Positions 36,658 through 64,000 of a stretch of 64,000 bases of DNA are shown piece by piece. The position numbers and the translations under genes are program-made. Location of the stretch: contig OZ244561.1 of NCBI GenBank assembly GCA_965217585.1, forward strand, positions 1,600,001 through 1,664,000, written 5' to 3'. Under the pieces are notes generated by a model that searched no databases, had not been told where the DNA came from, and was given only the letters and a program-made list of their open reading frames with translations. Numbering within the stretch: the stretch's first letter is position 1; each line of letters opens with the position of its first letter. This stretch comes from Candidatus Latescibacterota bacterium. Its GTDB lineage: Bacteria; Latescibacterota; UBA2968; UBA8231.

Positions 36658-37083
36658 TCAAAAGCGCTTGCGATAATGATCGCGGGGAAACAGAGAACAG
36701 GCCCGGCGCTGCCAGTAACTTTCCTCGTCGGGAGCGATTTTGCGGTCGAGCGGATCGCGCCCCAAAAGGCGCATGCCAAGCCCGATCAGCGTAAAAAGCG
36801 TGTAGAAAACCAGCCCCAAGAGCAGGTGGATATTGACAAAGGCCACGATCCTCGCCAGCCACATATAGGGAAAGTAGATCGGCTTCAGCGCAACGGGCAG
36901 CGCCAATCCGGCCCCGAGAAACACCAGCGAGGCCGCGAATACCAATTGCTTCGCGCCGATGGCGTCTCGGTACCACAGATAGCCACCTAGCAATGCCAGC
37001 AACGCCGCCAGCACGAGTCCGAATCGGCGCAAATCGCCGCGTGTGGGAACCGCAACCCCCCAGTAGCTCTTGACCTCAGTCAA
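36658..37083 (-). CDS. SxtJ-like membrane protein
   Basis: LRRFG, WM/WL..A..V..VN, GL.MRLLGRDPL, SYW, terminal F. TTG start at 37083 with GAGGAG 7 nt upstream, overlapping the carbamoyltransferase end. Confidence 0.8.
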   Translation of the reverse strand: MTEVKSYWGVAVPTRGDLRRFGLVLAALLALLGGYLWYRDAIGAKQLVFAASLVFLGAGLALPVALKPIYFPYMWLARIVAFVNIHLLLGLVFYTLFTLIGLGMRLLGRDPLDRKIAPDEESYWQRRACSLFPRDHYRKRF

Positions 37084-47800: not shown

Positions 47801-48122
47801 TCTGACCGCCTACGCGCAGGTCTTGGTCATTGCCGTCCTGGACCCGCCCACCCCAGATGATGCCGTCCTGGAAGATGACTTGGTCGGTCGAGCGCGGGTA
47901 GGTCACGCCCGAATTGCTGTTGAGCGGGTTGCGGGCCGACCAGCCATCGCTTTGGATCCACATGGCCATATTATTGATGTTGAGCAGGGTCCGTTGAGTG
48001 GACACCTCGATCTCATCTTGGGCCAGTTTGGCGGCCGGTGCGCCCCGCCCTTCGCGGGCCTGGACAGTGCCGACTAGGAGCAAGAGCGTCGCCGCCGCAA
48101 ATAGGTAAACAAACTTTCTCAT
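44832..48122 (-). CDS. Large acidic secreted/surface protein with a T9SS-CTD-like C-terminus
   Basis: Signal peptide, DxDxxG loops, Fn3-like YYFAVTAY, C-terminal INVFPNPY...IRIFDMSG.LVR...WDL......VASG.Y...K..VI. Confidence 0.85.
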   Translation of the reverse strand: MRKFVYLFAAATLLLLVGTVQAREGRGAPAAKLAQDEIEVSTQRTLLNINNMAMWIQSDGWSARNPLNSNSGVTYPRSTDQVIFQDGIIWGGRVQDGNDQDLRVGGQTYEIGTVPGVIESKGVAQDRETARLYRIRRDWATADLRLDASEVLNIGLSQVTAAHEEAVRAQYERDWTEWPAELGAPYYDNDGNGQYDPSVDEPGLANADQVIWFAINDLDQGATTNLYGSLPIGLETQVTLWGYARSDALGDVIFKKYKIIYKGTAEATDDAVIEDMYFAQWSDPDLGDFGDDFAGADVGLSLGYVYNSIDDDSHYVTFGLAPPAAGYDFLQGPIVPVYQLDDDGNIAVDEEGNQLLDESSVAIFNDGLRPGYKNLPMTAFVYFAAGSAISDPELGEYIGTQQWYNLLRGFQPQDDVENPVPYTNPLTNADTKFTLDGDPTRATGWNDGVPLPAGDRRIVLATGPFEMALGDTQEVVVALLGAISSDRLRSVSKLKFTDQFVQDAYNSFFQVPKPPTQPNVRLVELDQTIVLNWGWDPESVAKTESVGSPGFDFEGYNVYQLPSAEATLGQATKIATFDLVNGVTTILGIALDEQSGVVLDVPLQIGNDSGLQRYITMTSDAIRGGPLVNGQQYYFAVTAYSRATSAEAATTTTLESSPQSIICVPQVAPPGITRTHEDPGELLPVEHTKGIGDASVWAQVIDPTALQQAAYKVTFNDDATWSLSRGGEILVDRESNISLDESYPIVEGLQVKVGNLVFTNPTTYISAEVTNDANPEDGDLHLWSDGTLFGFPDGYGSTFWDGGGAGDNRLVRDIEFRFTGVWDADSTAIVEGGSMATLGGVSGGSGERDIAAHPFKPAEVSDSTGAFLQRVPFEIWDVEDPDNPRQLNAVFYDRGADGSRDEDSVVYHQTYNMPGRDYITIVHTDYDPTKIHELTDENTTWVYFFYQGGASVWSTGDVIKITIGNTVVAGEDEFEFSVTAEAYSEALAKENIGKINVFPNPYLGVNSAETSRYSHFVTFNHLPPKANIRIFDMSGTLVRTIEKDDPSQFTRWDLQNQNQLPVASGMYIAHIELPGTGMSRILKLAVIQEQQFLESF

Positions 48123-48137: not shown

Positions 48138-51100
48138 CTAGAAATCGAACTGCAGACCGAAGCGAATCTGGCGCGGCGCGTCGTAGATATCGCCGCCCTC
48201 GTTGGACCAGTAGGCTTGGCGGTTGGCCAAGTTGATCGCCTCGTAGAGTTGCACGTACTGTTGCCCGCCGCTGGCCTCGACGATCTGCTGACTCAGCTCC
48301 GGGTTGGTCAGGAAGCCATCGTCCTTGTCGGTGCCGGTGCGGTTGTACACGTTGAGCACGTTCTTGCGGTTGAAGAGGTTGATAACATAGCTATAGACCT
48401 TGGCGTTGAGACCAAACAGCGAGAAGCCCTTGTCGAGGCGCAGGTTGGTCTTGAAGGTCCACGGCGTCGTCGAGCGGTTGATCGACTCGAGCGGCTTGCG
48501 CGAGCGCGGGTCGAAGCTGTCGAGTACACCGGCGTTTTCTGGACCGCGCTGACCGATCGAACCGGTGACCAAGGTAAAATTGTGTCCGCTCGTGAAGCTC
48601 AGCAGCAGGTTGGCCCCCAGACTCCGCAGAAGTGGGTTGGGCTCGTTGTCGGGGTAGCGGTAGTCTAGGTAGATCGAGCCGCGGTGCGTCTCGTTAAAGT
48701 CGAGCGGCGAGATGATCGTCGGCAGGTTGGTCTCGTTCTCAACCCCGGAAATGGCCGAACCAGTATATGAACCCGTGCCGCGTGCATCGGACAGGGTGTA
48801 GTTCAGTTCGGTCCGTAGGTTATTGACGCGCCTGAGCTTGAACTGGAACTCGATGCCCTTGGTCGTGGCGAAGTCGCCGTTTTGCAGATAGGCGTACGCG
48901 CCAGCGTCAACCGCGCTAGCCGAGAGCTGCTGCTTGCGCAACTGCATCTGCCCTTTGACGTCGCGGTAGAAGCCCGTGATGTCGAAGGAGGCGGATTCGG
49001 CGAACTGACGTTCGAAGCCAATTTCGTACTGGGTAGTCCGCATCGGCTCGATGTCGTAGGCGGTCGGATAGCGAATGTAGTTCTGGCCGCCCAACTCTAG
49101 GGCGAGGCGTGCGCCGCCGGCAAACATGGCGCGCATCGCCGGCATTTGCGAGAAACGCCCGTATTGCACGTGAAAAACCGTCAAATCCGACACCGGGAAC
49201 GACATCCCCAAACGCGGGCTAATATCGGTGTACGTGGCGGTCTTTTCCATCGACGCGAGGTCAATGGTGTAGTTTTCCGGATCGCGCACCGGTGCGGCCG
49301 GGTCCTTGAAGCGCCAGCTATCCGCGTCGAAGTAGTCGATGCGTAGACCGGCGTTGATGATCAGGTCATTATACTCGACTTTGTCCTGGATAAAGACGGC
49401 GGCTACCGTCGGGTGGCGCGGTGCCTCTAGCCCCTCGCCGTCGGCCTCGCGGCCGAACTCGTCGAAGCCGAAGAAATCGCTGGCGCTAGTCGAGCGCAGC
49501 AATCTGATCAGATCCTGCTTGCTACCCTTGCCATCGTCAAGACCCTCGGCTGTCTCGATCAACTCGTCGAGGATCTGGTCTTCGCTGATCTCATCGTTGT
49601 AGTAGCGGTCGTACACCGCGTCCAACTCGGGATAGGTATTGGCTATCCCCGAGCGGATCGAACGCAACGAGATCCCATAGCGCCGCGAGGTCCAATTCTG
49701 GTAGTCGAAACCGGCCCTGATCTGATGCACGTCGGTCTGCTTGGTCCAGCTACCGGCCAGCCCCCAATAGCCATCCGACGTGGTGCCGTAGGAGGTCGTA
49801 CGCGAACCCGGGCGGTTGAAGGGAAAGCCGGCCAGATCGTAGGGCCTAGGCCCCGAACCCTGCTGGGTATAGGGCGTGTACTCGCCCGTGCCCTCGAGGG
49901 CACGCTGTACGGCAACGCTGTCGTTGTACACCCACCACCGATCCTCGAAAAGCGGGTCGTAGGACGTGGCATCCTGCTTGTAGAGGCTCACGTTGAGTTC
50001 GTAGAACATGCTCTTGTCGAGCAGGTGGGTGAGCTTGGCGTTAATCAGGTTGGAGGACGCTTCCGACTCGACCAAACGCCGGGTGTTAAAAGCATTGCGG
50101 ATGGGCGCTCCGTTGCTTTCAAAACTCCCGTCCGAGTACAGATTCGTGAGGCGGAGCTGGACGGGGTAGTAGTCGAGCAGCAAGGTCCCGTTGAAAATGT
50201 TCCCTACACTACTCGTGTGCGGAATATTGCCGGGCTTGATTTCGAGCTGCTCGATCCGGTCGGGAACGGGATTACCCTCCTCGTCCTCGCCCCAGTGCCG
50301 GCGGCCACCGCGGAGGCCGGTGTCTTCGAGATCCTCGAAGGTAAAACCCGACCAGTAGGTCGGCCAAGAACCGAGGTTGAAGCGCTGACCGGCCAAGAAG
50401 GCGCGAATCTTCTGGCTACCCGCAACCGGACCACCGGCGGTGATCACCTGATTGGAATAGCCGTAGGAATAGGTGCCGAAGCGCTGCTCATAGTCGGAGG
50501 TAAAATTGTCCGACTCAGAGACGATCTCGAAGTCCCAGTCGCTGCCGCCGGTGCGCAACTCTTGCAGGATAATGCCGGCGTTGGCACCGCCGTACTCGGC
50601 GTTGAAGCCGCCGGCCTGGAGCTGGATTTCCTCCAGTGCCTCGACGATCAGTCCCACCGCGCTGGCACCAGTGACCACATTGCGGACGCTGGCCCCCTCG
50701 ACGTAGTAGCCGATCTCGTCGCCGCGCGAGCCACGGATATGCAACGTCCCCTCGTCATCAACCACGCCGGTCTGCAGGGCCAAGACTTGGCCGACGCCTC
50801 GGAGCGGCAGAATCTCGAGATCCTCGGCATCGACGATGCGCACCGCATTGGTGGCGTTTTTGTCGATGATCGGCCGCTCGGCTCGGATTACCACTTCCTC
50901 GACCTGGATATCCGAAGAAGTCAATTCAACGGCGATATTCGTAGTCAGGTCGGCGGAGACCCGCACATCCTCGACGGTATAATCCGCGTAGCCGATATAC
51001 GTGGCCTTGAGGGTGTAGGTACCCGCTGGCACATTGAGAATAAAAAAGCGGCCCTGCTCATCTGCCGTGGCCCCTAGCTTGGTATCTACCACCACGACAT

Positions 51101-51248
51101 TGGCATGGGGCAACCCGTCCCCGGTGGTGGCATCCTTGACGGCACCAGCTATTTTGCCGCCTGTACTGGCCTCGGCCGGAGCCAAGCTCAGCGCAAGCAG
51201 GACGCCCAGTGCGGTCAGGACGCGAAAAACGCCTTCAAACTTGGTCAT
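48138..51248 (-). CDS. TonB-dependent receptor
   Basis: N-terminal GKIAG.V.D..TG..LP.ANV extension, plug HIRGSR..E..YYVEG, GGFNAEYG, ISPRLG.SFP, C-terminal PRQIRFGLQFDF. Confidence 0.93.
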   Translation of the reverse strand: MTKFEGVFRVLTALGVLLALSLAPAEASTGGKIAGAVKDATTGDGLPHANVVVVDTKLGATADEQGRFFILNVPAGTYTLKATYIGYADYTVEDVRVSADLTTNIAVELTSSDIQVEEVVIRAERPIIDKNATNAVRIVDAEDLEILPLRGVGQVLALQTGVVDDEGTLHIRGSRGDEIGYYVEGASVRNVVTGASAVGLIVEALEEIQLQAGGFNAEYGGANAGIILQELRTGGSDWDFEIVSESDNFTSDYEQRFGTYSYGYSNQVITAGGPVAGSQKIRAFLAGQRFNLGSWPTYWSGFTFEDLEDTGLRGGRRHWGEDEEGNPVPDRIEQLEIKPGNIPHTSSVGNIFNGTLLLDYYPVQLRLTNLYSDGSFESNGAPIRNAFNTRRLVESEASSNLINAKLTHLLDKSMFYELNVSLYKQDATSYDPLFEDRWWVYNDSVAVQRALEGTGEYTPYTQQGSGPRPYDLAGFPFNRPGSRTTSYGTTSDGYWGLAGSWTKQTDVHQIRAGFDYQNWTSRRYGISLRSIRSGIANTYPELDAVYDRYYNDEISEDQILDELIETAEGLDDGKGSKQDLIRLLRSTSASDFFGFDEFGREADGEGLEAPRHPTVAAVFIQDKVEYNDLIINAGLRIDYFDADSWRFKDPAAPVRDPENYTIDLASMEKTATYTDISPRLGMSFPVSDLTVFHVQYGRFSQMPAMRAMFAGGARLALELGGQNYIRYPTAYDIEPMRTTQYEIGFERQFAESASFDITGFYRDVKGQMQLRKQQLSASAVDAGAYAYLQNGDFATTKGIEFQFKLRRVNNLRTELNYTLSDARGTGSYTGSAISGVENETNLPTIISPLDFNETHRGSIYLDYRYPDNEPNPLLRSLGANLLLSFTSGHNFTLVTGSIGQRGPENAGVLDSFDPRSRKPLESINRSTTPWTFKTNLRLDKGFSLFGLNAKVYSYVINLFNRKNVLNVYNRTGTDKDDGFLTNPELSQQIVEASGGQQYVQLYEAINLANRQAYWSNEGGDIYDAPRQIRFGLQFDF

Positions 51249-51284
51249 GTGTTCCTCCTTTGTAGGGTAGTTCTCAATACCCCT

Positions 51285-52010
51285 TCACATCAGATGCAAC
51301 CAGTCTCCTAAGAGAAAGGTCACACGCCCGATCAACAGCGAAACCCTCGCCATAATGGTGTAACCAAACGAGGCCCCAAACGAGACCATCAAAAACCATA
51401 TCCCCACCTTGGAGATATGACCCGCCGCGCCGGTGTGCTCGACGGAAAAGAAGAAATAAACCAACACCCCTACTACCCCCACTAAGACGATCAGCAAATT
51501 GAGCCCCTCCAAGCTCCAAGTTAGTGGTTGTAATGTAGGTTCAACTTGGGCCAAGATAAAGGAAGAAATATATCGGGGAATCGTCAGGCCGGCCCCGAGC
51601 CCCACAAAGAATGCAAAGGCATAGCGGCTGAGCCAACCAAAGCGCAGCGAAAAGCGCGTCAACATCAACAGCCCGAGCACCGTGGGAGCCAAAAGCCACC
51701 AATTGGGCGTCTCCCCTTCCCCCGGATCGGTCCATTCGGCGATGAGCTCGCCGTAGATCGTCGGGTACCAAGTCTGGCCGAATATATACGCCGCCGCCAC
51801 GCCGACAAAAACGTGCTCGGCGAACTTGAACAGCGGGTTGTCCTTGTAGAGGAAGCTATAGAGCGCCAAGGTCATGCCCGCCGCGACAATGATGCCCAAA
51901 CCCGTCCAGTCCGCCGCCAAAATCCCACTGGCCACCAAGCCGATATTGACCGCGGCAAACAGCAGGATCACGCCCAAAAAGACATTCGTATCGCGCATGG
52001 CGGCGATCAA
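51285..52010 (-). CDS. Uncharacterised multi-pass membrane protein
   Basis: About 6-7 hydrophobic segments; YSFLYKDNPLFKFAEH.FVG and FGA.FG.T.M.R motifs; overlaps the upstream gene. Confidence 0.8.
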   Translation of the reverse strand: MIAAMRDTNVFLGVILLFAAVNIGLVASGILAADWTGLGIIVAAGMTLALYSFLYKDNPLFKFAEHVFVGVAAAYIFGQTWYPTIYGELIAEWTDPGEGETPNWWLLAPTVLGLLMLTRFSLRFGWLSRYAFAFFVGLGAGLTIPRYISSFILAQVEPTLQPLTWSLEGLNLLIVLVGVVGVLVYFFFSVEHTGAAGHISKVGIWFLMVSFGASFGYTIMARVSLLIGRVTFLLGDWLHLM

Positions 52011-52837
52011 CTCCTCTGCTCGGATGAAGTTCGCCGAGCGGCGAAGTGCGCGATATTGCCGAGAATCACGAAGATCGCGATGACCAAATGAGCCATTGAC
52101 TGGGCGCTCATGCCTTTGCTGGCACTGCCAGGACGTTCAATCAGGGTCTCGTATTCGGCTGCGCCGGCTAGACCACCGAGCAGGCCGCCGAGCTGTCCCG
52201 AGTCGAGGAAGGGATAGAGATCGGGAGCCATCACCGCGGTGCAGCCAGCGACAAAGGGAAAGCCGTACTTCTCCTGCCCGTAGGGGATCCACCAGAACTC
52301 AATCGAATCCCCGGCAGCTAAGTCTAAGACGAGGGCGAAATCGCGCAGCGAGCGCAAACCGCGCGTCAAATCCAAGTCGCCAGTATCCGCGCCCCATTGG
52401 TCCTGCGGGAAGGCACTGCGGAAGTCCTGCCCCATATTGAGAATGACGCTAAAACCGCCCGGCTTGTAGCCCATAAAGGCATAATCCACCCCGTACTCCA
52501 AATCGAATTCAGCCGCTATCTCCTCCAGTACCTGTTGGGCCAGCCCCGGTGCCTCGGGCCACAGGCAAATGGCCACCACCTTGAGGTCGCGGCGGAAGGC
52601 GTGGCGCAAAATGGCATGCGACATCGGCAGCATTTCAGGTGCCGTGCTGGCACCGTAAGCAAAGGAAACCAGCACAATGTCCCCTGCGTCGAGTTTCTCG
52701 AACTGGTCGTACGCGGCTTTTACTTCGTCCGTCGGCGTGATCGGCAGGGACATCCCGGCCAGCAACGGCCCAGCCACGCTGATAAACACTAGGGCGAAAA
52801 TGATGCGACGGTCGATAGCGAGCAGTCTGTGCATCAC
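52007..52837 (-). CDS. Uncharacterised membrane-anchored protein (probable remote DUF6754 paralog)
   Basis: N- and C-terminal TM helices flanking an alpha/beta domain; YG.DY...GY.PG and GL.GAAEYE motifs. Confidence 0.8.
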   Translation of the reverse strand: MMHRLLAIDRRIIFALVFISVAGPLLAGMSLPITPTDEVKAAYDQFEKLDAGDIVLVSFAYGASTAPEMLPMSHAILRHAFRRDLKVVAICLWPEAPGLAQQVLEEIAAEFDLEYGVDYAFMGYKPGGFSVILNMGQDFRSAFPQDQWGADTGDLDLTRGLRSLRDFALVLDLAAGDSIEFWWIPYGQEKYGFPFVAGCTAVMAPDLYPFLDSGQLGGLLGGLAGAAEYETLIERPGSASKGMSAQSMAHLVIAIFVILGNIAHFAARRTSSEQRS

Positions 52838-53490
52838 TCAGCTCCTCCGCCCAAATACGAGCGCTCAATCCCAAAAATGATCCGCAGTGAGGTAGCAATA
52901 GCACCCAGCGACACGCCGAGCAGGATGCCGCGCTTGGCCGCCAAGTTGGGCACGGTCAACAGCCAATCGGACACCAGCGGAAAATACTCGGATATCTCCC
53001 GGCCAATGGGCACGCGACCCAGCATGACGATGACCGCCGCGACCAGTAGCAGCGCGGCCTCGGGCGTGCGGGCGCGGAAAGTTCGGTATGCCGCCGAGGC
53101 AATAAAGAAGGCCAGAAGCGAAAACATGGTCCCAGCACAGGGAAGGTGGACGTAGTCGAAGAGCCACTTATAGCCCCCGGCCTCAGCTTGCGCGACGAAG
53201 GGGCCCAAGCCGTCGTTGTACACGACGAAGCCCATCATCACCGCGAAGCTTAAAATGGCGATCAAGCTATAGGCCCAGCCGGCGACGCGCTGGCGAATCC
53301 GCTGCCAGTGCAAGTTGAGCAGGCTATAGAGGCCGAGCAAAAAGGAAAACGCGAAGACGATGCGCACCCATAGCGCCATCTCTCGCTCCAAACTCTGCGC
53401 GTGGCCGTGGGGTATGTAGTAGATGACAATGCCGAGCATACCGAAGGCGAAGGCGACGACCAGCGGCAAAGTTCGACTAAGAAAAATCAT
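52834..53490 (-). CDS. Uncharacterised multi-pass membrane protein
   Basis: About 6 TM segments; TMFSLLAFFIASAAYR.FR.R and LR...G.ER motifs. Confidence 0.8.
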   Translation of the reverse strand: MIFLSRTLPLVVAFAFGMLGIVIYYIPHGHAQSLEREMALWVRIVFAFSFLLGLYSLLNLHWQRIRQRVAGWAYSLIAILSFAVMMGFVVYNDGLGPFVAQAEAGGYKWLFDYVHLPCAGTMFSLLAFFIASAAYRTFRARTPEAALLLVAAVIVMLGRVPIGREISEYFPLVSDWLLTVPNLAAKRGILLGVSLGAIATSLRIIFGIERSYLGGGAE

Positions 53491-53499
53491 CGCGCCCTC

Positions 53500-54744
53500 C
53501 TAGGGGCTAAAAAAGTGCGTCAACTGCGGCCACCACTCCAAGGTCGCCAGCAGCGTACCCAGCACTAAGACAGCCAGCAGAATGGCCTTACCGGCATCTT
53601 GGCCCTTGAGACTGCCCAGCATCCGCGGTTCGCCCGACAGATAAGCACTGGCTGCGTAGAGCTCTTCGCCGAGCAGGGTATAGTCGCAGGTAGTAATAAA
53701 GAACGGCAACTGGGTGAAAGCATCGGTGCCGGCGATCTGGATCGCCCCGGTCGTCGCCCCGGTCTCGGCTAACAGCAGCGACTCGGCGTAGAAATATCCC
53801 ATCATAATGTGAGCCGCCGGACGGTCGCGGACCATAATGCCCTCGACTGCCGCCGCATAGCTGAACTGCTCGGTGCTAGCGACAAAGACGTGGTCGGGAT
53901 TGAAAGCGTCGGGCCGTCCCGCCTCCACATACGAGGCTTTCACCGTCTCTTGGCTGACAGACATAACTACTGGGTCTGGAGCCACCACCCGCAGCGCGGT
54001 GTCGTATTCGGCCGTGCGCCGCGCGACCCGCCCCAAGATATTGACCGCGGCAATGGTCGGTATCTGGCTCATGTCGCGCAGGCCGTGAATGAAAAGCACC
54101 GGCTTGCCCATCTCGGTCGCCCGCCCCAGTGCCTCGTCGAGTGCCTCTAACCCGGCGATGCGGCGGATCTTGAGTTCGCGCCGCCGCGCAATGCCAATGT
54201 AGCCCATGATAAGCCCTGAGAACACAAGGCATAGTACCAGATTATTGGTCTTGGCGCGATTGAAAAGATTGCCTGTGGACTCGGCGTTGACGATCACCTT
54301 GCCGCGGATCGCGCCCCCGGCCGATCGCACATCGACGTGAAAGTAATAGGTCTTGCCGTCTTCTAGCGGCGTCTTGCCGCCCGCGCCGGCGAAATCCTCG
54401 ACGTTGACATAGTGGTGATTCCCCAGATCGGCCCCACGCCCAAAAAGCGCCGGTGCCTCGGACATCAAATTCTTCGTGGCCGCAACCTCGGCCACGACGC
54501 GAAAAGGTCCGCTGGGCGAGTCGGCGATGGCGACCTGATACATCGCATTTTCGCTGATCTGCTGATCTCGCGGCCAAGTCAGCGTAATGCTGCCGCCGCC
54601 GTCGTTGGGCGTGTCGAAGGCTTGGACCTCGATCGGCGGCCTAGGGTGTGCCAGCAACGCGCCGAGCCCTTGTTCCGCATTTTCCGCCGCGCTCGCCAAC
54701 GGCCAAGCCAAGACTAATGAAGCCAGCCAGTTTTTTGCTCTCAT
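53500..54744 (-). CDS. DUF6754-like protein with an N-terminal Fn3-like domain
   Basis: Signal peptide, Fn3-like (PP..V.A.D.PND.G..I.L.W...YYF), TM, IRRIAGL.A.DEA.GRATEMG.P, LLGEELYAASAYL, terminal TM. Confidence 0.78.
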   Translation of the reverse strand: MRAKNWLASLVLAWPLASAAENAEQGLGALLAHPRPPIEVQAFDTPNDGGGSITLTWPRDQQISENAMYQVAIADSPSGPFRVVAEVAATKNLMSEAPALFGRGADLGNHHYVNVEDFAGAGGKTPLEDGKTYYFHVDVRSAGGAIRGKVIVNAESTGNLFNRAKTNNLVLCLVFSGLIMGYIGIARRRELKIRRIAGLEALDEALGRATEMGKPVLFIHGLRDMSQIPTIAAVNILGRVARRTAEYDTALRVVAPDPVVMSVSQETVKASYVEAGRPDAFNPDHVFVASTEQFSYAAAVEGIMVRDRPAAHIMMGYFYAESLLLAETGATTGAIQIAGTDAFTQLPFFITTCDYTLLGEELYAASAYLSGEPRMLGSLKGQDAGKAILLAVLVLGTLLATLEWWPQLTHFFSP

Positions 54745-54748
54745 ACCT

Positions 54749-55864
54749 TTATTCCTCAATCAACTCCACATTTGCCCGTGGCACTACCGCCTGTTTCCCG
54801 TCTTCAAACTCCACGGCCAATACCCGCACTCGCGCCCCAGACTCCACCGCGCACAACTCGGTCGGCAAGTCACTGACGCGCCCAATCCGCCCAAAATAGG
54901 GCATCCGAATCACCCGCAACAAATCACCCACCTGCAACCCTTCCGCGCCCGCCCGCACCTCTTCTTCCTCTTTGTCAGCAGCTGTGGGGACGATAATCTC
55001 CGGCCGCAACACACCGGCGCGGATCTGGGTCGCTCCAGCCATGGACGCATCCATGCCAGCGCACGCTTGCAAAATATCAAAAGTCTTGCGGGCCATGGCG
55101 ACGCGGCCGAAGCCCTCGGTCGCTACCACCGTCAGGCCGATTTGCTCGGTGCCGGTGATGGCCACGCCCAAATCGCGGCCGAGCAGGTCGCGCAAGTCGC
55201 GGTCGCGCAGGCCGCCGCCGATCAACCCCACAGCACCTGCCTGCCGGGCCTGTTCCACGGTCTCCGTGCTAATCAGACTGCCAACCACTACAATCTTGCC
55301 CGCCACTTCCGGTCCCAGCGGCCCGGCGATGGCGTCTGGGGCCTCAACCGCCAAGTGCAGCGCGCCCCAGCACTCGCCCCCTACGCCGAAAATGCCCTGG
55401 ATATAAGCACCTCGCGCTACGACGCGCACGCCCTCCTCGGCAAAAACTTCCTCGACGACCCCATCCACGTACGCTAGTACTTCGACCGGCTTAGGCGCTT
55501 GGCGCAGTATCACCTGCCCAGTCACTGGCGAAATGCTCTCAACGGTGCCGCTGACCGGCGATTCAACTGTGGCCTTGAACCACCGAATAAATGGCCTAGT
55601 CTCGGCGAGTGGCTCGCCGGCTTCGACTCGGTCGCCCTCTTGTTTGAGCATATAGCCAGCTAGCTCTTGCGGCGGGATGCCCAAGCGGTTGACCAAGTTG
55701 AGGGTCGCCACATCGCCCGGCAGTTCGGTGCGGGCCACAACTTGGTCGCGGCGCACTGCTTGGCCGCGCTCGACGACAACTTCGCCTTTGAGGGGCAAAC
55801 GCCGCTCTTTGTGGACGACTGCATATTGCGTCACGCGCAGTCCAGGAGTATAAGCATGGGCCAT
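54749..55864 (-). CDS. Soluble protein with barrel-sandwich-hybrid repeats and a C-terminal KOW-like domain
   Basis: GEVVVERGQAV...QVVA, K.EGDRVEAGEPLA...ESPVSGTVESI, LQVGD..RVIR.PYFG..G.V. Confidence 0.78.
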   Translation of the reverse strand: MAHAYTPGLRVTQYAVVHKERRLPLKGEVVVERGQAVRRDQVVARTELPGDVATLNLVNRLGIPPQELAGYMLKQEGDRVEAGEPLAETRPFIRWFKATVESPVSGTVESISPVTGQVILRQAPKPVEVLAYVDGVVEEVFAEEGVRVVARGAYIQGIFGVGGECWGALHLAVEAPDAIAGPLGPEVAGKIVVVGSLISTETVEQARQAGAVGLIGGGLRDRDLRDLLGRDLGVAITGTEQIGLTVVATEGFGRVAMARKTFDILQACAGMDASMAGATQIRAGVLRPEIIVPTAADKEEEEVRAGAEGLQVGDLLRVIRMPYFGRIGRVSDLPTELCAVESGARVRVLAVEFEDGKQAVVPRANVELIEE

Positions 55865-55867
55865 GAG

Positions 55868-57649
55868 CTACTCGTATAGGTTTAACGCCTGCTGCCAGCC
55901 GCTTATCTGACGCCGGCGGTCGCGGTCTGTCACCATCTGGATGGGTCGCCCGCGGCCATCCAGCACTAGCCCTACGACCCCGCCGCGCACCCGCGCATTT
56001 AGGGCCTGCCCCGGGCCAGCACCCACATCCCAACGCCGCGCCGGCTGGAGTGAGACTTCGACCTCCTCGCCGTCGGCCAAGGGCATCCACTGTAGCTGGC
56101 CGACCTGCAATTGGCCGATTTGACTCCCGCTGGGCAGGTCTATTTCGTATTGGAGGCAAACCTCGCCGTCCTTACCCTCGCCGACGGGAGCCACACAAGT
56201 GCCCAAGTAGATCAGGCAATCGCGCTCAAAAACCTCGGTGGCGGCTCGCTCGTCAACAGTCGAGAGCACCCCCAAGTGAGGCATCATAAAGATGCTATCG
56301 ACCGCCAAGCGGGTGACACCTGCGGGCTGGAAGGCATCTATGAGCATGGCGCAACTTTGCTCGCGGCGAGGCGCGTGCGAGAGCACGCCACCGCTGCCGA
56401 CTAACATGTCTAGCGCCATCATCTCGACTAAGCTCTCGCCGGTGGCCTCCTGTTCAAAGACATCGGCCAGCGTGCGCTTGCTCTGCACCCCCTTCAACCC
56501 CACTGCCAACGCCCGGTGCTGGTCAAAGGCCAAGCGCAGAGCCTCGCGGGCAATGGCTTGCTCGACTTGCAATTCCTGCATGAGCTGCGGGATGGTCGTC
56601 GGGCGGATCATCTTGTTTTTGATCCGGTCGCGGAGGTCGGCCTCCTCAATGTCAAAGGGAACCCAGCGCATGATGTGGTCGAGGCCGGCCTCGGCCAGCA
56701 CGTTGGAGACGCTATAGGACATGCCGAGATTGGCACTGACCGTGCGGTTGAACACGCCGTCGAAGACGCTGAACACGTCGGTCGTCGCCCCGCCGATATC
56801 CACACCGACGACGTTGATCCCCTGCTGGCGGGCAATGGTCTGCATGATTTGGCCCACCGCCCCGGGCGTCGGCATAATCGGTGCGCCGGTCCAGCCCATC
56901 AGCTTGCGGTAGCCAGGCGCTTGCGCCATGACGTGTTCGAGGAAAAGGTCGTGAATGACGTGCCGCGCCGGGTCCAGATTTTCCTCTTCGAGCACGGGGC
57001 GGATATTCTCGGTAACGGTCAGGGCCATCTTCCCCCCCAGCGCCTTTTCGACCTCCTCGCGCGCGTCCTCATTGCCCGCAAAAATAACCGGCAACTTAAA
57101 GCCCGCGCCAAAGCGGGGCTTGGGATCGGCCGCGCTGATGAATTCGGCCAACTCGACCACATGGCTGACGGTGCCGCCATCCGTGCCGCCCGACAGCAAT
57201 ACCATATCGGGGCGCAATTGGCGGATGCGCTCTATCTTTTCGTGCGGTAAGCGCCCATCATTGGCGGCGAGCGCGTCCATGACGATCGCCCCGGCACCCA
57301 AGGCGCAACGCTGCGCGCTCTCGCCGGTCATCGCCAGCACCACGCCGGCCACCACCATCTGTAACCCGCCGCCGGCACTGCTCGTCGAGATGTAGATATC
57401 AACCCCGACATCGCCGTCTGCCGGAGTGATGATCCGCTCGCCATCGAGGATCTGCCGCCCAGAAAGCTCCTCGACCTCTTGAATGGAGTTAAGCATCCCC
57501 CGGGTGACATCCTCAAAGGGGGCCTCGACCGTGGTTGGGGCCTCGCCGCGAAAGGTCTGGCGATACCCTTCGTCCTTCTTTTCGATCAGGATCGCCTTGG
57601 TCGTCGTACTGCCGCAGTCGGTGGCGATAACTACGTTGAGGTCATCCAT
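55868..57649 (-). CDS. GlmL/MutL-like (glutamate mutase L family) ASKHA ATPase
   Basis: TDCGSTTTK, SSAGGGL, LLSGGTDGG, PTPGAV, VDIGGATTDV.S, GSGGVLSH. Confidence 0.88.
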   Translation of the reverse strand: MDDLNVVIATDCGSTTTKAILIEKKDEGYRQTFRGEAPTTVEAPFEDVTRGMLNSIQEVEELSGRQILDGERIITPADGDVGVDIYISTSSAGGGLQMVVAGVVLAMTGESAQRCALGAGAIVMDALAANDGRLPHEKIERIRQLRPDMVLLSGGTDGGTVSHVVELAEFISAADPKPRFGAGFKLPVIFAGNEDAREEVEKALGGKMALTVTENIRPVLEEENLDPARHVIHDLFLEHVMAQAPGYRKLMGWTGAPIMPTPGAVGQIMQTIARQQGINVVGVDIGGATTDVFSVFDGVFNRTVSANLGMSYSVSNVLAEAGLDHIMRWVPFDIEEADLRDRIKNKMIRPTTIPQLMQELQVEQAIAREALRLAFDQHRALAVGLKGVQSKRTLADVFEQEATGESLVEMMALDMLVGSGGVLSHAPRREQSCAMLIDAFQPAGVTRLAVDSIFMMPHLGVLSTVDERAATEVFERDCLIYLGTCVAPVGEGKDGEVCLQYEIDLPSGSQIGQLQVGQLQWMPLADGEEVEVSLQPARRWDVGAGPGQALNARVRGGVVGLVLDGRGRPIQMVTDRDRRRQISGWQQALNLYE

Positions 57650-57977
57650 GCTTTTGGCTTTCGCGCTGGGCAATGGCCTCCGCGAGCAAGTCTATGCTCT
57701 GGCGTCGCTCCAACATGTGCGTAAAGCGCTGGTACTCGTCGCGCGAAAAAACCAGCGTGGCAAACGGGGCTAAAAAGGTCAGGGCTTGGCTGCCCAAAAA
57801 GTTGAGGGGACGGCAAGCCTCCAACGCCATGGACGCTGCCGCTCCCATGCGGCGACGTACTATAAACTCGGCCAGCCGCTCGGCGAGCGCGCGCTCGTCC
57901 TCAGACCAACCCGTCTCCGGGTCTTCGAGGGCAAAAGCGTGCCGCCACTGCGTTTTTAAGCTATTGACTTGGAACAT
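57642..57977 (-). CDS. Small hypothetical protein
   Basis: Fills the operon gap with overlaps on both sides; LE..RPLNF.GSQ...FL.PF motif. Confidence 0.7.
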   Translation of the reverse strand: MFQVNSLKTQWRHAFALEDPETGWSEDERALAERLAEFIVRRRMGAAASMALEACRPLNFLGSQALTFLAPFATLVFSRDEYQRFTHMLERRQSIDLLAEAIAQRESQKHG

Positions 57978-58377
57978 GGCACCGGACGAAGCGCGCAACT
58001 TCTTCGCGGTTTTGATCGCACCGCAAAAAGACGCCGCGAAAAGAGTCCAGCCGACCCGGGCGGGCGGAAGGACGCAAAAAAATACCGTCCCGATGCTCGT
58101 CTGCTCGACGGAATTCCGCCCAAGAACGACGCTGTTTAAGGCCGAGATGTTCGCTGCTTATCCCTTCGCCGTCGAGCGCGTAGCGCGTAGCAAAGAAATA
58201 GCGCGACAGCGAGACGGTCAAGGCTCCCAGTGAAAACACCCCATAAAACCAATGCTCAAAACCAAACGCCGCCGCCGCTGAGGAAGCGACGATGAGCGCG
58301 ACTAGCAGTATCGACTTGGCCGGCCTCTCCCGGCGCAGGGGGTGGCTCTCCCAGCGAAGGACGTCTGTGGAGGACAC
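57961..58377 (-). CDS. Small membrane protein (2 TM plus bacterial PH-like beta domain)
   Basis: W..HP, two TM helices, YF..TRY.L...GI, R.W..F. Confidence 0.7.
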   Translation of the reverse strand: MSSTDVLRWESHPLRRERPAKSILLVALIVASSAAAAFGFEHWFYGVFSLGALTVSLSRYFFATRYALDGEGISSEHLGLKQRRSWAEFRRADEHRDGIFLRPSARPGRLDSFRGVFLRCDQNREEVARFVRCHVPSQ

Positions 58378-58392
58378 GGAGGACGCGTCCTA

Positions 58393-60234
58393 TTAGTACA
58401 TCTGCTCTTCCTGCGCGACCCACCAGTCTTGCAAGCGGACACCGGGGGGATACCAAGTGACGCCGCTGAAGCGCCGACTATAGGCTTGGGACGAGCGCGA
58501 CTTCCACATGAAGGTGTACGGCTGTTCTTCGCGTAGGATCTCCTGAAAGCGGCGATAGAGCTCGATGCGCTTATCCACGTCAAACTCGCGGCGGTAGGAC
58601 TCCAAGATGTTATCAACTTCGTCGTTGATAAAGCTCACGTGGTTGGAGCCGTTTTTTACCGCTTGGGAGGAATGCCAGATCTGGTAGCCGTCGGGAGCAA
58701 AGCGCAGGCTGCCGGTCCAGCCCAACACTATTGCGTCAAAATCCTTGCTCTTGACCTTTTGCAGGAAGATCGACCAGTCTAGCTCGCGCACTTGACAGTC
58801 AATGCCGATATCTTGCAACTCGTATTGGACCGTCAGGGCGATGTCTTTGCGAATCTGGTTGCCCGAGTTGACCAAGATCTCAAAGCTAAATGGCACCAAC
58901 TCCCCATCGATGGTCTTGTCGAGAATGCCGTCCTCGTCGGCGTCCGCCCAGCCAGCCTCTGCGAGCAGGTCGAGGGCGTGGTCGGGATCATACGTGTACG
59001 GCGCGAGGGCGTGGTTGTATTCGGGGCGGAACTTGTTGATCGGCCCCTCCACCGTCTCGGCCAAGCCGAACATGATGTTCTCCACCATGCCTTCTCGGTC
59101 GGTCAAATAGGTCATGGCTTGGCGCACCTGCTTATCGCCGAAAATCGGATGGTTGTTGTTCCACCCTATGTACATATAACCCTCGGAGTAGCTGACGCCT
59201 TTGAGGAAGCGGCGGTTGAAGTCGTCCGACCAACTCTTTTCCTTGAACTCCAGAGGACGCAGGCTGTGGTAGTCGAGGTGGCCGTTGGTCAGCTCGATGA
59301 ACGCCGCGTCGGTATTGTTGATGATGTTAAAGACGATCTTATCGACAAAGCCGGGCGGCAGCAGCCCTTCCACATCCCGACCCCAGTAGTTTTCATTCCG
59401 CGTCAGCACGACCTTCTGCTGAGTGACCAAATCGCGCTCTGGATCTTCAATCATGTACTGCCCCGACCCGAGAGCCTTGCGATTGAAATTTTGGTTGAAC
59501 TGTTCAGCAAAGCGCTGGACTCGTTCCTTGTGCGGCCCCTCCTCCCAAGAGCCATCCACCAAGCTCTTAAAATCGACCGAATCCATCAGCCCCTCTGGGT
59601 CGTAGAAATGCTTAGGCAGGATGGAGAAGCCGCCCAAGATCAGGTCATTGCGGAAATAAGGCTCGCGGCAAAGGAAGCGAATCTTGTTGGTGCCCACGAT
59701 CTGCACGTCCCGGACGGTAGCATAGTAGTTGCGCAGATGCGGCGCTAGCACTTGGGGGTTGTGGATGACCTTCATGCTGAAGACTACATCCGCAGCCGTC
59801 AGCGGCTTGCCGTCTGAGAAGTACACTCCGTCGCGCAACTCAAACGTGTACGTCAGTTTGTCCTCAGCAATCTCTGGATAGCCGACGGCCACCCAGCCCC
59901 GCAGGTTGTACGGGGGATCATGGTCAGCGTCGAGCAGGGTCTCAAAAATATGCCCCAGTACCTGGCTAGCACTGGCATCGCTGGAGGTGTACGGGTTGAG
60001 CTTTTCGGGGTCGGACAGCATGTGACGCACCATCCAGTCGCCGTGGGTCGGCTCTTCACCTCCCTCGTAGCGCAGCGGCACCTTTTCGGTGCCGTCGAGT
60101 ACGACGATATCTTTGGTACTCATGAGAATTTCCTGCACTACTTCCCATGCTGAAGAGGGGTCATGGGAAGTAGTGCAGGAAATGACGCAGACGCCCAACC
60201 AAGCGGCCACAACGAACATTTTAACTTTCGGCAT
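58393..60234 (-). CDS. Peptide ABC transporter substrate-binding lipoprotein (family 5)
   Basis: Lipobox VISC, DP..LNP, YTF.LRDGV.FSDG.PLTA.DV.FS, F.D..VRQA. Confidence 0.93.
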   Translation of the reverse strand: MPKVKMFVVAAWLGVCVISCTTSHDPSSAWEVVQEILMSTKDIVVLDGTEKVPLRYEGGEEPTHGDWMVRHMLSDPEKLNPYTSSDASASQVLGHIFETLLDADHDPPYNLRGWVAVGYPEIAEDKLTYTFELRDGVYFSDGKPLTAADVVFSMKVIHNPQVLAPHLRNYYATVRDVQIVGTNKIRFLCREPYFRNDLILGGFSILPKHFYDPEGLMDSVDFKSLVDGSWEEGPHKERVQRFAEQFNQNFNRKALGSGQYMIEDPERDLVTQQKVVLTRNENYWGRDVEGLLPPGFVDKIVFNIINNTDAAFIELTNGHLDYHSLRPLEFKEKSWSDDFNRRFLKGVSYSEGYMYIGWNNNHPIFGDKQVRQAMTYLTDREGMVENIMFGLAETVEGPINKFRPEYNHALAPYTYDPDHALDLLAEAGWADADEDGILDKTIDGELVPFSFEILVNSGNQIRKDIALTVQYELQDIGIDCQVRELDWSIFLQKVKSKDFDAIVLGWTGSLRFAPDGYQIWHSSQAVKNGSNHVSFINDEVDNILESYRREFDVDKRIELYRRFQEILREEQPYTFMWKSRSSQAYSRRFSGVTWYPPGVRLQDWWVAQEEQMY

Positions 60235-60267
60235 ATTCTTCCCTTTGTACTAGCTATACCAAATCCA

Positions 60268-61188
60268 TCACACGAAGGTCAACCATCCGTGCCGATCCTC
60301 GACTTCGACGCGAACCACTGCGAAAAAGGCGTCTTGTATCTGCGCCGTGATCGGCCCGCACTTCCCACAGCCGATCGGCACTTGGTCGACGGCACGGATC
60401 GGCGTGATTTCGGCGGCCGTGCCGGTGAAGAACACCTCGTCGGCGATGTAGAGGAACTCGCGCGGAATACCGCGTTGCTCTACTCGCATTCCCAGATCGC
60501 GTATCAGGGTAATGGCGGTGTGGCGGGTGATGCCCGGCAGGATGGCAAAACACGATTCGGGCGTGTAGATCGAGCCGTTCTTGATGACAAAGATGTTCTC
60601 GCCGCTGCCCTCGCTCACCAACCCATCCGTTCCCAAGACAATGCCCTCGTCATAGCCGTTCGCATTGGCTTCGATCCGCACGAGCTGCGAGTTGAGGTAG
60701 TTGCCGCCCGCCTTAGCCAAGGCGGGAAACGTATTCGGGGCCATGCGATTCCACGACGAGGTGCAGACCGAAACGCCGTTTTTGAGCGCCGCCTCTCCGA
60801 GGTACTCTCCCCACTCCCAAACGGCGATCACTACATCAACCGGGCATCCCATCGGATCAACTCCCAAGTTCTCATAGCCGCGGAAGACGATCGGGCGGAT
60901 ATAGCAGGCCGCGAGTTGGTTGACGCGGATCGTCTCGAGGATGGCCTCTCTGATTTCCTCGCGCGTATAGGGAATTTCCATGCGGTAGATTTTGGCGGAA
61001 TCAAATAGCCTATTGACGTGCTCGTCGAGGCGGAATACGGCCGAGCCTTTCGCGGTCTTGTAACAGCGAATGCCTTCAAAAACGCTCGAGCCGTAGTGTA
61101 TTACATGGGAGAGCACGTGGATCTTGGCGTCGTCCCAATCGACCAATTGGCCATTGAACCAGATTTTATCGCATTTGGGCAGGGGCAT
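60268..61188 (-). CDS. ilvE: Branched-chain amino acid aminotransferase
   Basis: [42 protein letters not shown]; SD AAGGAG before ATG 61188. Confidence 0.96.
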
Positions 61189-61263
61189 GTAGAGAATCTC
61201 CTTGGGCAAGCATGCGATTAATTAAGGTAACACCGCTGCGAAACCGTTACCAGTGTTAAGCAA

Positions 61264-63234: not shown

Positions 63235-64000
63235 AGCCCCTCCTTGCCTAAGCGCGAGTAGGCGTCGCCCAGCCGGATGAATTCCTCTAGCGACAATTCC
63301 TCCGGGCGGCGCGTTAATTCGATACCCGCCTGCTGGCCTAGCTCTTGCAGCCAAGGCCGGCCCCCCTCGGGATTGAGGCCGAGGAGCGAATTGCGCAGCA
63401 TCTTGCGCCGCTGGCCAAAGGCTCGGCGCACCAAGCGGTCAAAACAGCCCACGTCCTTTACTGCATAGCGGGGCTTGGGGGCAAAGCGCAGTTCGACTAC
63501 GGCCGAATCCACCGCCGGCACAGGCCGGAAGCAATCGCGCCCCACCTGCAAGTGCATCTCCACTTCGGCTCGCATAGCCACCAGCACCGACAGCAAGCTG
63601 TAATCCTTTGAACCGGGGCTAGCGACCAAGCGCTGAGCCACTTCGCGTTGGACCATGACGATGGCACGGCTGATACAACCGGCGTGTGCGATGAGGTGAA
63701 AGATCAGCGGAGCGGTGATATTGTAGGGAAGGTTGCCGACAATCAGCAGCCGATGACCGCCCGCGTCCCGCAGAACCTCCCCGAGATCGACTTGCAGAAT
63801 ATCTCCTTCGATCAAGCGCAACCTACACGCGTCTTGGCGTGCGCACAGCAAGGCCACCAAGTCGCGGTCGATTTCCACGGCCACTAGGCGATCCACAGAA
63901 GCGAGCAGCACCTCGGTCAACGCGCCCCGGCCCGGGCCAATCTCGACGACCACCTCGCCAGCGGCCGGGCGCACCAGCCCAGCAATGGCCTCTATGACAC
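63231..64000 (-). CDS. rsmA: 16S rRNA m6,2A dimethyltransferase (5'-truncated by window)
   Basis: EIGPGRGALT, VEIDRDL, GNLPYNIT, MVQREVA, F.QRRK.LRN. Confidence 0.96.
   Translation of the reverse strand, partial: VIEAIAGLVRPAAGEVVVEIGPGRGALTEVLLASVDRLVAVEIDRDLVALLCARQDACRLRLIEGDILQVDLGEVLRDAGGHRLLIVGNLPYNITAPLIFHLIAHAGCISRAIVMVQREVAQRLVASPGSKDYSLLSVLVAMRAEVEMHLQVGRDCFRPVPAVDSAVVELRFAPKPRYAVKDVGCFDRLVRRAFGQRRKMLRNSLLGLNPEGGRPWLQELGQQAGIELTRRPEELSLEEFIRLGDAYSRLGKEGL

Follow-up and report, generated by a model that had tools for sequence, protein, structure and literature searches.

The 64,000-nucleotide stretch of DNA considered here, referred to as the window, belongs to contig OZ244561.1 (positions 1,600,001–1,664,000) of a Candidatus Latescibacterota bacterium. 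Its minus strand harbours a compact unit of eight genes that encode an ASKHA ATPase, a soluble partner, four membrane subunits and two small proteins. The first gene of the unit in this lineage, U2 (57961–58377), specifies a small membrane protein of 138 amino acids, and U1 (57642–57998), which precedes the ATPase gene, a conserved small protein of 118 amino acids. Gene A (55868–57673) encodes the ATPase, with 601 residues when translation is initiated at a TTG codon and 593 when it begins at the ATG at position 57649. Next come gene B (54749–55864), coding for the 371-residue soluble partner, and gene C (53500–54759), coding for a membrane subunit of 419 residues with a DUF6754 domain. The last three genes are D (52834–53490), for a polytopic membrane protein of 218 residues; E (52007–52837), for a protein of 276 residues with a membrane helix at each end; and F (51285–52010), for a second polytopic protein, of 241 residues. 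A and B are separated by 3 nucleotides and C and D by 9, B and C overlap by 11 (C starts at TTG), and the D/E and E/F junctions are 4-nucleotide overlaps.

A preliminary description of this DNA, made from its letters and open reading frames, had recognized six packed, co-directional genes from A to F (51285–57649), and the list of open reading frames agrees with that composition. The extent of the unit requires amendment: U1 and U2 lie upstream in the same direction, so that the genes number eight. The two are counted as members because they overlap and share the strand, and because U1 stands ahead of A in most related loci. Both the distribution and the architecture of these genes, as outlined below, indicate that they very probably constitute one system that has nothing to do with B12 mutases.

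A scan of positions 50900–60500 for promoters and terminators performed no better than on shuffled sequences (3 versus 2.6 and 13 versus 9.9, respectively). Contigs from RNA libraries, which by themselves prove neither transcription nor a single transcript, were available from four metatranscriptome runs in three studies. The X16 and X17 contigs, both from one study of sponge metagenomes (P8), span most of the region from F to U2 at 95–100% identity, and those of X16 bridge the F/E, E/D, D/C and A/U1 junctions. A single 9.1-kb contig from X20 extends from F to the start of B. As the sponge contigs match positions 51285–58161, close relatives of this bacterium evidently occur in sponge-associated communities.

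An ATPase apart from GlmL

The product of gene A matches the Pfam family MutL (PF13941) along the complete profile (positions 1–450 of 450; E = 1.4e-126; 423.4 bits, above the gathering score). Its scores for the curated subfamilies all fall below the respective cut-offs: 231.1 versus 475 bits for the GlmL equivalog NF040745, 211.5 versus 600 bits for Or-4 and 162.3 versus 204.05 bits for the glmL_fam subfamily. The segments DCGSTTTK, DIGGATTD and GSGG, which we take to be the phosphate-1, phosphate-2 and adenosine motifs of the ASKHA fold, are present in the translation as initially reported and, together with a GGTDGG segment, are invariant in 24 orthologues from several phyla. The protein carries an extra C-terminal domain of ∼110 residues, and a simple hydropathy scan detects no membrane segment in it. 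Conservation is far stronger among orthologues across phyla (65–87% identity) than the resemblance to the true GlmL of a relative of the same class, genome G040 (30% over ∼470 residues). A represents a separate clade, sister to the B12-mutase helper GlmL, that has evolved very slowly. Among 1.84 billion cluster representatives searched, 3096 relatives of A were retrieved at E ≤1e-3 and 804 at E ≤1e-30.

The bacterium's own genome (7.3 Mb, single contig, 94.6% complete) was searched in full for glmE (PF06368), and none was found. A is the sole MutL protein encoded there, and the only B12-binding domain scoring over its cut-off sits ∼3.5 Mb from the locus. The neighbours of A are B and U1, not glmS and glmE, and in the loci seen it never adjoins the latter two. 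Across the class, glmE is present in 1 of 41 genomes versus 40 of 41 for DUF6754, counting the genome under study; the DUF6754 miss is an 87%-complete assembly in 400 contigs, and the system is single-copy and near-universal in this class. The one genome with glmE, G040, provides an internal control, as it encodes two separate MutL paralogues, each with its own set of partners. A glmS-glmL-glmE operon (locus L115, 6895–10239) contains a glmL of 470 codons and a glmS whose product matches the solved sigma subunit of glutamate mutase (E = 3e-51). The second, long MutL, a 594-residue open frame, is located on another contig, ∼6 kb from a DUF6754 gene.

The association between A and DUF6754 extends to Planctomycetota. 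In a sample of 151 genomes of that phylum, searched for DUF6754 and MutL and not for glmE, a strong MutL match (E <1e-100) occurs in 38 of the 40 DUF6754-positive genomes and in 0 of the 111 negative ones, among which one weak MutL-like match of 102 bits and three sub-threshold matches were recorded. These genomes are related and not independent, hence the counts are given without a significance test. The view that this GlmL clade follows DUF6754 and not glutamate mutase, implied by the preliminary description, is therefore borne out by the genome itself, by the counts in the class and in Planctomycetota, and by the paralogues of G040. The same results make it scarcely credible that A is an ordinary GlmL serving a B12-dependent mutase encoded elsewhere, with neighbours that are coincidental. 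The Pfam MutL match would agree with such a role, as would the name ‘glutamate mutase L’ given by NCBI to relatives of A (P0240 of Mcinerneyibacteriota, P0128 of a Bacillota metagenome-assembled genome). Nevertheless, the genome lacks glmE, A scores below all GlmL cut-offs, its clade accompanies DUF6754 and the long MutL of G040 is separate from true GlmL. A membrane-coupled amide hydrolase, a further option raised at the outset, finds no support of its own: there is no HyuB-type partner, and the sole trace is a short Hydantoinase_A match at the phosphate-2 motif of A.

The arrangement of the genes is widely conserved, as the preliminary description would predict. One genome per species was scanned, which yielded at least 596 relatives of C, and the best 80 loci served for synteny counts. 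These loci belong to Latescibacterota, Gemmatimonadota, Planctomycetota (Brocadia, Kuenenia, Anammoxibacter and others), Nitrospirota, Methylomirabilota, WOR-3, UBP7 and a few other labels. C, D and E are adjacent in all 80 and are accompanied by F in 77, the three misses being at contig ends. A is located upstream of C in 57 loci, mostly as A-B directly ahead of C and usually with U1 before A. Of the 23 loci devoid of A, 7 are cut by a contig end and 16 have more than 7 kb of upstream DNA containing neither A nor B. When 5 of these 16 split genomes were checked, each harboured exactly one long MutL elsewhere (open frames of 604–640 residues), preceded by U1 in four cases and followed by B in three. 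These split genomes indicate that the system is composed of two separable modules: U1-A-B, joined by U2 in some lineages, and C-D-E-F. Insertions are also seen: two Nitrospirota loci have two Tll0287-like genes (PF11845) between B and C (L080, 1864–3527; L091, 2845–4393), and L044 has a DUF445 gene between A and B.

Subunits and a predicted interface

C is assigned to DUF6754 (PF20539) with an E value of 5.3e-113 and 376.8 bits, above the gathering score, over residues 163–409. Its layout comprises a signal peptide, an exported Fn3 domain, a membrane helix, a highly conserved cytoplasmic domain and a last membrane helix. The helices were placed by hydropathy scan at residues 173–191 and 389–407, with six lysine or arginine residues behind the first. 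The exported domain is Fn3 by fold (Z 10–11 over ∼90–100 aligned residues, model residues 38–163), and Fn3 matches filled the fold search, whose outcome does not speak to the cytoplasmic domain. In an alignment of 32 sequences residues 199–391 display many invariant columns and long invariant runs. The AlphaFold2 (AF2) model of C is poor, with a mean predicted local distance difference test score (pLDDT) of 66.5 and values below 50 in stretches 196–219 and 297–379, which are the most conserved. A profile of C retrieved nothing below E 0.02 among sequences of the Protein Data Bank (PDB), as was also the case for the profiles of B and E, and residues 165–419 gave no usable ESM Atlas match once DUF6754 itself was left out.

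The cytoplasmic domain of C opens, at residues 220–295, with a beta-alpha-beta pattern and an invariant His225-Gly226 pair behind the first strand. This feature raises the question of whether A and B act as a cofactor chaperone, opening a Rossmann-like domain of C to load or exchange a cofactor, possibly a corrinoid, for a membrane enzyme composed of C to F. DdrA and EutA, relatives of A, act on cofactor-binding subunits, and A is genuinely homologous to GlmL (231 bits, 30% identity), with which it shares GGTDGG. On the other hand, C possesses no DxHxxG motif and no Pfam B12-binding domain, and an hhalign comparison with the GlmS profile of G040 detected no relation (probability 0.15, a weak test). 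We consider a chaperone of this sort highly unlikely.

The other membrane proteins have no Pfam family, nor does a consistent one emerge at E ≤1 over 36 orthologues of D, 35 of E and 28 of F. By hydropathy scan D has ∼6 membrane helices and F several membrane segments; D also contains an invariant FxxLxF..SAAxRxFRAR segment. Neither D nor F matches BPD_transp_1 or another permease family, and A is not an ABC ATPase according to Pfam. E harbours a domain of ∼215 residues between its two terminal helices, which the distribution of lysine and arginine charges predicts to face the periplasm, and in the ESM Atlas its neighbours belong to clusters without names, from Latescibacterota, Fidelibacterota and Chloroflexota. 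A duplicate origin of E and C, or of D and F, receives no support from hhalign, which finds no relation in either pair; a beta-alpha-beta likeness of E and C was judged by eye only.

U1 matches no Pfam family and is recognizable by an invariant HAF motif and a conserved RPLNFLGSQ..FL.PF segment in 21 orthologues; it remains with A where A-B has parted from C-F. U2 has one hydrophobic segment (residues 22–40) and a single, sub-threshold Pfam match, to TgpA_N (17 bits; cut-off 30). Its orthologues stand directly upstream of U1 in 40 loci, mostly from Latescibacterota and Gemmatimonadota and some from Planctomycetota.

In Planctomycetota the membrane module can be repeated and its exported part replaced. 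Two DUF6754 matches are found in 11 of the 40 positive genomes. L102 (4603–11115) carries two C-D-E-F cassettes in tandem, one of them with a C protein lacking the Fn3 domain. C proteins of 913–1355 residues are encoded in L099 (2728–6792 and 9926–13768), L100 (7397–11245) and L101 (3887–6625), and the exported extensions of 600–1000 residues of these proteins contain no Pfam domain. Such repetition of cassettes, with outer parts that can be exchanged, would be in keeping with a modular machine that encounters more than one kind of substrate.

The soluble partner B folds into three domains in an AF2 model with a mean pLDDT of 85.5. Residues ∼10–150 form a barrel-sandwich hybrid, which matches the N-termini of NqrA and RnfC at Z 7.3–7.5 over 64–68 aligned residues (VIA-align: B residues 51–123 versus NqrA, Z 7.3–7.5; 47–124 versus RnfC, Z 7.4). 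Residues ∼152–294 constitute a swivelling beta/beta/alpha domain similar to the His-domain of phosphotransferase system (PTS) enzyme I (Z 9.9, root-mean-square deviation 2.6, 105 aligned residues) and to rifampin phosphotransferase (Z 9.2), the C-terminal domain of pyruvate kinase (Z 9.0) and the small subunit of aconitase X (Z 8.4). Residues 307–371 adopt a KOW/SH3-like barrel as in the KOW domains of NusG and Spt5 and in NdhS, PsaE and PetP (Z 7.5–8.9). These Z values are middling: they show fold, not function. In Pfam, RnfC_N (27.9 bits; cut-off 25.6) and Biotin_lipoyl (27.4 bits; cut-off 22.1) score weakly, just above their cut-offs, and NQRA_N (20.2 bits; cut-off 25) and PA remain below theirs. 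The remaining domains of NqrA and RnfC and the Pfam families of NqrB-F and RnfADEG are absent from B, D, E and F. B has no membrane segment by hydropathy scan and no cofactor motifs, and neither a DdrA nor a DdrB chain is among the fold matches listed for it. A phosphocarrier of enzyme I type was considered and rejected, as there is no histidine among the invariant or near-invariant columns of residues 145–293 and PF00391 is not matched.

Fusions provide a further view of A and B. Among the best 150 representatives of the A family, 44 are A-B fusions, 11 bear N-terminal extensions of at least 60 residues and one (P0146) has a U1-like extension at its N-terminus. Pfam searches of 16 A-family proteins identified as add-ons a helix-turn-helix (HTH) domain of type HTH_3 in P0200 and P0240, GntR in P0167, a zinc ribbon in P0210 and, weakly and below cut-off, in P0203, and an M1 peptidase domain in P0128 (residues 390–542); P0125 has a 690-residue region of unknown kind. 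P0240, from Mcinerneyibacteriota, is a 1015-residue fusion of HTH_3, ATPase and partner B. P0128 (1332 residues, Bacillota) has its peptidase domain ahead of a full long-MutL ATPase, a second hint at peptides that is independent of the importer genes described in the next section. In eight metagenome loci with HTH-A-B fusions, C, D, E and F were not found within 8 kb. The one annotated locus of this group, L110 (7971–13426), has the fusion followed by kdsA-, kdsD- and kdsC-like genes, with an EPSP-synthase-family (MurA-like) gene ahead; L103 and L104 show open reading frames of the same sizes behind the fusion.

These forms suggest a sensor or regulator, in which A-B would be a nucleotide or ligand switch that reports on or gates C-F, binding ATP for signalling and not for work, and which some branches would have converted into transcription factors. 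The HTH_3 and GntR domains fused N-terminally to A or A-B are in line with this idea, and so is the resemblance of the B swivelling domain, albeit without a conserved histidine, to regulatory or phosphocarrier domains of enzymes that use phosphoenolpyruvate. There is also a precedent for ASKHA-fold repressors held at a membrane transporter, namely Mlc with PtsG. However, HTH add-ons are confined to 3 of the best 150 representatives; all three are distant (40–43% identity) and both HTH_3 forms lack the C-terminal extension of A. Moreover, no variation is seen in the catalytic ATP motifs across the main clade, a trait more usual for working ATPases. A purely regulatory role is thus rated as quite unlikely.

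The contact between the two modules was examined by complex prediction of A (593 residues, 24-row alignment) with residues 192–419 of C (32-row alignment). The pair scored 0.63 (runs 0.63, 0.64 and 0.61) versus 0.00 for the best of three controls; 58 of 80 solved complexes attain this mark, as do 2 of 110 mismatched pairs, a rough calibration since custom alignments were used. The runs share at least 87% of contacts, and the pLDDT of the partner is at least 72. On the side of A the predicted interface comprises residues 103–108, 129–130, 154–163, 217, 220 and 386–392; on the side of C, residues 208–219, 251–253, 335–341, 356 and 359. Residues 154–159 of A are the invariant GGTDGG and residues 208–219 of C are the invariant cytoplasmic helix LDEALGRATEMGK: the model thus builds the interface from columns that are invariant in both families. 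The stretches of C that AF2 leaves unfolded in the protein alone are those that touch A in the modelled complex. A profile of A has no match among PDB sequences at E ≤0.01, and because no solved structure is related to A by sequence, the docking probably does not echo a complex that is already known. The confident interface called for in the preliminary description is accordingly predicted for the modelled A-C pair, and we regard binding of A to C as rather more likely than not.

Neighbouring genes and proposed working

The unit is embedded in ∼21 kb of co-directional genes (40235–61209, minus strand) that look like a peptide-acquisition locus. Directly upstream of U2 lies a gene for an OppA-like family-5 solute-binding lipoprotein (58393–60234; PF00496, E = 2.1e-74), preceded by one for a class IV aminotransferase (60268–61209). 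RNA-library contigs leave the OppA stretch mostly uncovered, which is no evidence of absence. Behind F, at a distance of 36 nucleotides, the locus continues with a SusC-like TonB-dependent receptor (48138–51248), a 1096-residue protein that bears a signal peptide and matches no Pfam family (44832–48122), and then a PorV-like protein and a tetratricopeptide repeat protein, all on the minus strand. The receptor occupies the same place in 11 related loci and the 1096-residue protein is kept behind it in 10; the latter may belong to the locus as a protein that is secreted or exposed on the surface. OppB (41279–42574) and OppC (40235–41278), each with BPD_transp_1 and either BPD_transp_1_N or OppC_N, are encoded 9 kb downstream of the unit on the same strand and belong to the same importer as OppA. 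No OppD/F-like gene was found within the 64 kb, and four OppD/F pairs are located elsewhere in the genome. Outside this locus, a gene for a 696-residue protein rich in serine, asparagine and arginine (61264–63354, minus strand) has no Pfam family and a composition like that of an outer-membrane beta-barrel, and at 36658–38899 (minus strand) a small SxtJ-like protein (PF19588, E = 7.5e-7) adjoins a carbamoyltransferase (PF02543 and PF16861).

That the unit is set in a peptide-uptake locus was part of the preliminary description, and the relatives take the point further. An Opp gene stands beside or inside the module in 31 of the 40 loci from Latescibacterota and Gemmatimonadota, and in 20 of these 40 OppA orthologues do so; scores of 780–1297 bits for OppA and 560–690 bits for OppB and OppC set the orthologues apart from paralogues (90–190 bits). 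Six loci (L035, L038, L043, L049, L051 and L054) have OppA-OppB-OppC between A and B and OppD-OppF behind F. In five of them the order is U2-U1-A-OppA-OppB-OppC-B-C-D-E-F-OppD-OppF; in L035, which agrees from OppA onwards, the contig ends upstream of OppA, so that A would lie beyond. Spacing between interleaved genes is as tight as 4 nucleotides in L051 and L049. Nine further loci have OppD-OppF alone behind F and two have the pair in convergent orientation, whereas OppA ahead of U2, as in the window, is seen in fourteen loci; L025 has OppB and OppC after the module.

The link to Opp is real but lineage-specific, and it may reflect either shared function or just shared regulation: OppA, OppB and OppC are associates of the module in this lineage, not part of its core. 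An accessory of the importer, working physically with OppBCDF in peptide handover or processing or in gating and not as a machine in its own right, would account for the interleaving at 4-nucleotide spacing, for OppD/F directly behind F in 15 loci and for the same OppABC orthologues following the module through three different arrangements. Yet Opp genes are absent from the neighbourhood in 38 of the 40 loci from other phyla, and such a role therefore cannot be the core function. In the window itself OppB and OppC are 9 kb off and no OppD/F pair is present, and operon sharing may mean co-regulation alone. We regard this role as improbable.

Another proposal is an envelope machine, as opposed to an importer of nutrients, that for example exports or inserts lipid, glycan or protein, or provides a mechanical link to the periplasm, with A-B as its ATP-dependent switch. 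The exported Fn3 domain of C, replaced by very long exported extensions in some Planctomycetota, the large E domain predicted to be periplasmic and the TonB-dependent receptor behind F here and in 11 related loci are all consistent with it. So are the Mcinerneyibacteriota HTH-A-B fusions, which immediately precede kdsA-, kdsD- and kdsC-like genes and have a MurA-like gene in the vicinity. This last neighbourhood is, however, found in a branch that has no C-F nearby and in one lineage only, and the receptor as a neighbour is lineage-specific. Furthermore, a member of the family exists in Bacillota, which makes a role tied to the outer membrane unlikely as the core function. On these grounds an envelope machine appears unlikely.

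As to ATP hydrolysis and how it is coupled to D, E and F, what is moved and in which direction, and the role of B and U1, we infer the following sequence of events. A would bind ATP by means of its intact phosphate-1, phosphate-2 and adenosine motifs and would rest the region of its GGTDGG loop on LDEALGRATEMGK, the invariant helix in the cytoplasmic part of C. B probably helps to clamp A onto the membrane part: it is often fused to A elsewhere, and membrane complexes use barrel-sandwich and SH3-like domains, such as it contains, in their peripheral subunits. Depending on its nucleotide state, A, assisted by B and U1, may then alter the conformation of C and thereby that of polytopic D and F, in a complex whose reach into the periplasm would be provided by the Fn3 domain of C together with the large E domain. 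The likeliest output would be ATP-dependent translocation, that is uptake, of a substrate across the inner membrane.

The reading that we favour, and hold to be on balance probable, is thus that of a widespread two-part system in which soluble U1-A-B acts with a four-subunit inner-membrane complex, C-D-E-F, in ATP-switched translocation. Taken by itself, the identification as a translocation or uptake machine is a possibility with somewhat less than an even chance. Its local role is probably peptide or nutrient acquisition, because the module is wired into the operon of one oligopeptide ABC importer; a peptide-related substrate in this lineage is a tentative and rather doubtful suggestion.

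A number of observations weigh against the favoured reading. D, E and F match no transporter family in Pfam or in scans of their orthologues. The rarity of Opp genes in other phyla, where two Anammoxibacter loci with OppD/F-type genes near F are the exceptions among 40, is accompanied by the absence of any flanking gene outside the system that is conserved across phyla. Many carriers are autotrophs (Nitrospira, anammox bacteria, Methylomirabilis), a poor fit to peptide nutrition as the core function. The HTH-bearing A-B relatives near kdsA-kdsD-kdsC-like genes, without C-F within 8 kb, occur in a context that points to regulation or envelope synthesis, not transport. Unity of the system is also imperfect: two of the 40 DUF6754-positive Planctomycetota genomes (G106 and G131) lack MutL, although in G131 both DUF6754 matches fall on a single short contig, and in two of the five split genomes the 1.1 kb that follows A yielded no B. 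Finally, the docking of A on C expresses the confidence of the prediction model itself.

Comparison with known systems

A literature search, from whose coverage subscription journals were largely missing, retrieved no paper on this system or on DUF6754. What is new here is the within-genome control with true GlmL, the co-occurrence across 151 genomes, the docking of A on C at invariant motifs, the census of fusions and the interleaving with Opp genes. The system is present in key organisms of the nitrogen cycle, including Nitrospira, anammox bacteria and Methylomirabilis, and in many uncultured phyla. Its subunits show the degree of conservation that core machinery usually does, and they comprise three membrane proteins without a family, one DUF and an ATPase named after an enzyme absent from these genomes. 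The interleaving with Opp offers a first handle on function, and the predicted A-C interface names precise residues. An ATP-driven machine with an actin-fold motor would, if confirmed, be a new kind of energy coupling at the membrane and would correct the ‘glutamate mutase L’ annotation that NCBI attaches to relatives of A.

GlmL/MutL, accessory protein of the coenzyme-B12-dependent glutamate (methylaspartate) mutase, and Or-4 of ornithine degradation (PF13941, NF040745, NF040744) are the nearest known systems: they belong to the same Pfam family and have DxGST, GGTDGG, DxGGATTD and GxGG in common with A. The function of GlmL itself is presumed. One published account (PMC5597319) counts glutamate mutase with those actin-superfamily members that do not polymerise. 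A differs from these proteins in scoring under their curated cut-offs, in its additional C-terminal domain and in having a DUF6754 protein as partner.

The reactivases of diol/glycerol dehydratase and ethanolamine ammonia-lyase (DdrAB, GdrAB/PduGH and EutA) combine an ASKHA ATPase with a swivelling domain that acts on a Rossmann-like subunit by means of a nucleotide switch; the DdrAB type also has a small Rossmann-like beta subunit, which changes places with that of the enzyme. Here a swivelling fold is found on B, and the predicted target is the cytoplasmic domain of C. There are differences: reactivases serve soluble B12 enzymes whereas A would act on a membrane complex, the swivelling domain resides in a separate protein that also bears barrel-sandwich and KOW domains, and no test performed here implies a cofactor.

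Actin-fold cytoplasmic proteins that dock on membrane proteins reaching into the periplasm are exemplified by PilM on PilN, FtsA and GspL/EpsL. The predicted docking of A on C resembles this arrangement, but A is drawn from another ASKHA family, no pilus, secretion or division genes surround it, and D, E and F have no family. At the level of single domains, B is comparable to peripheral subunits of energy-converting membrane complexes, in its N-terminal part to NqrA and RnfC (RnfC_N 27.9 bits; Z 7.3–7.5) and in its C-terminal barrel to NdhS, PsaE and PetP (Z 7.5–8.0). These are matches of middling Z, and B is not accompanied by membrane subunits of Nqr, Rnf or Ndh.

The sharing of modules in Opp/Dpp importers and in energy-coupling factor (ECF) transporters with several S components provides a final parallel, in that one ATPase module may serve several membrane cassettes. 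ABC importers are built from an ABC nucleotide-binding domain and BPD_transp_1 permeases, whereas A has the actin/Hsp70 fold and D and F belong to no permease family; the true OppB, OppC, OppD and OppF are encoded by separate neighbouring genes and are not subunits of the module. A more far-reaching reading, which we put forward tentatively and consider somewhat unlikely as a whole, is that A, an ATPase of actin/Hsp70 fold, would together with B and U1 clamp and release the invariant helix of the DUF6754 subunit and so drive C-F, as a primary active membrane machine of a new class. The ATPase module might serve several exchangeable C-D-E-F cassettes with different exported domains, and the machine would have been built into oligopeptide uptake in Latescibacterota and Gemmatimonadota. 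Such a mode of action would set this machine apart from the ABC, P-type, rotary and AAA+ motors.

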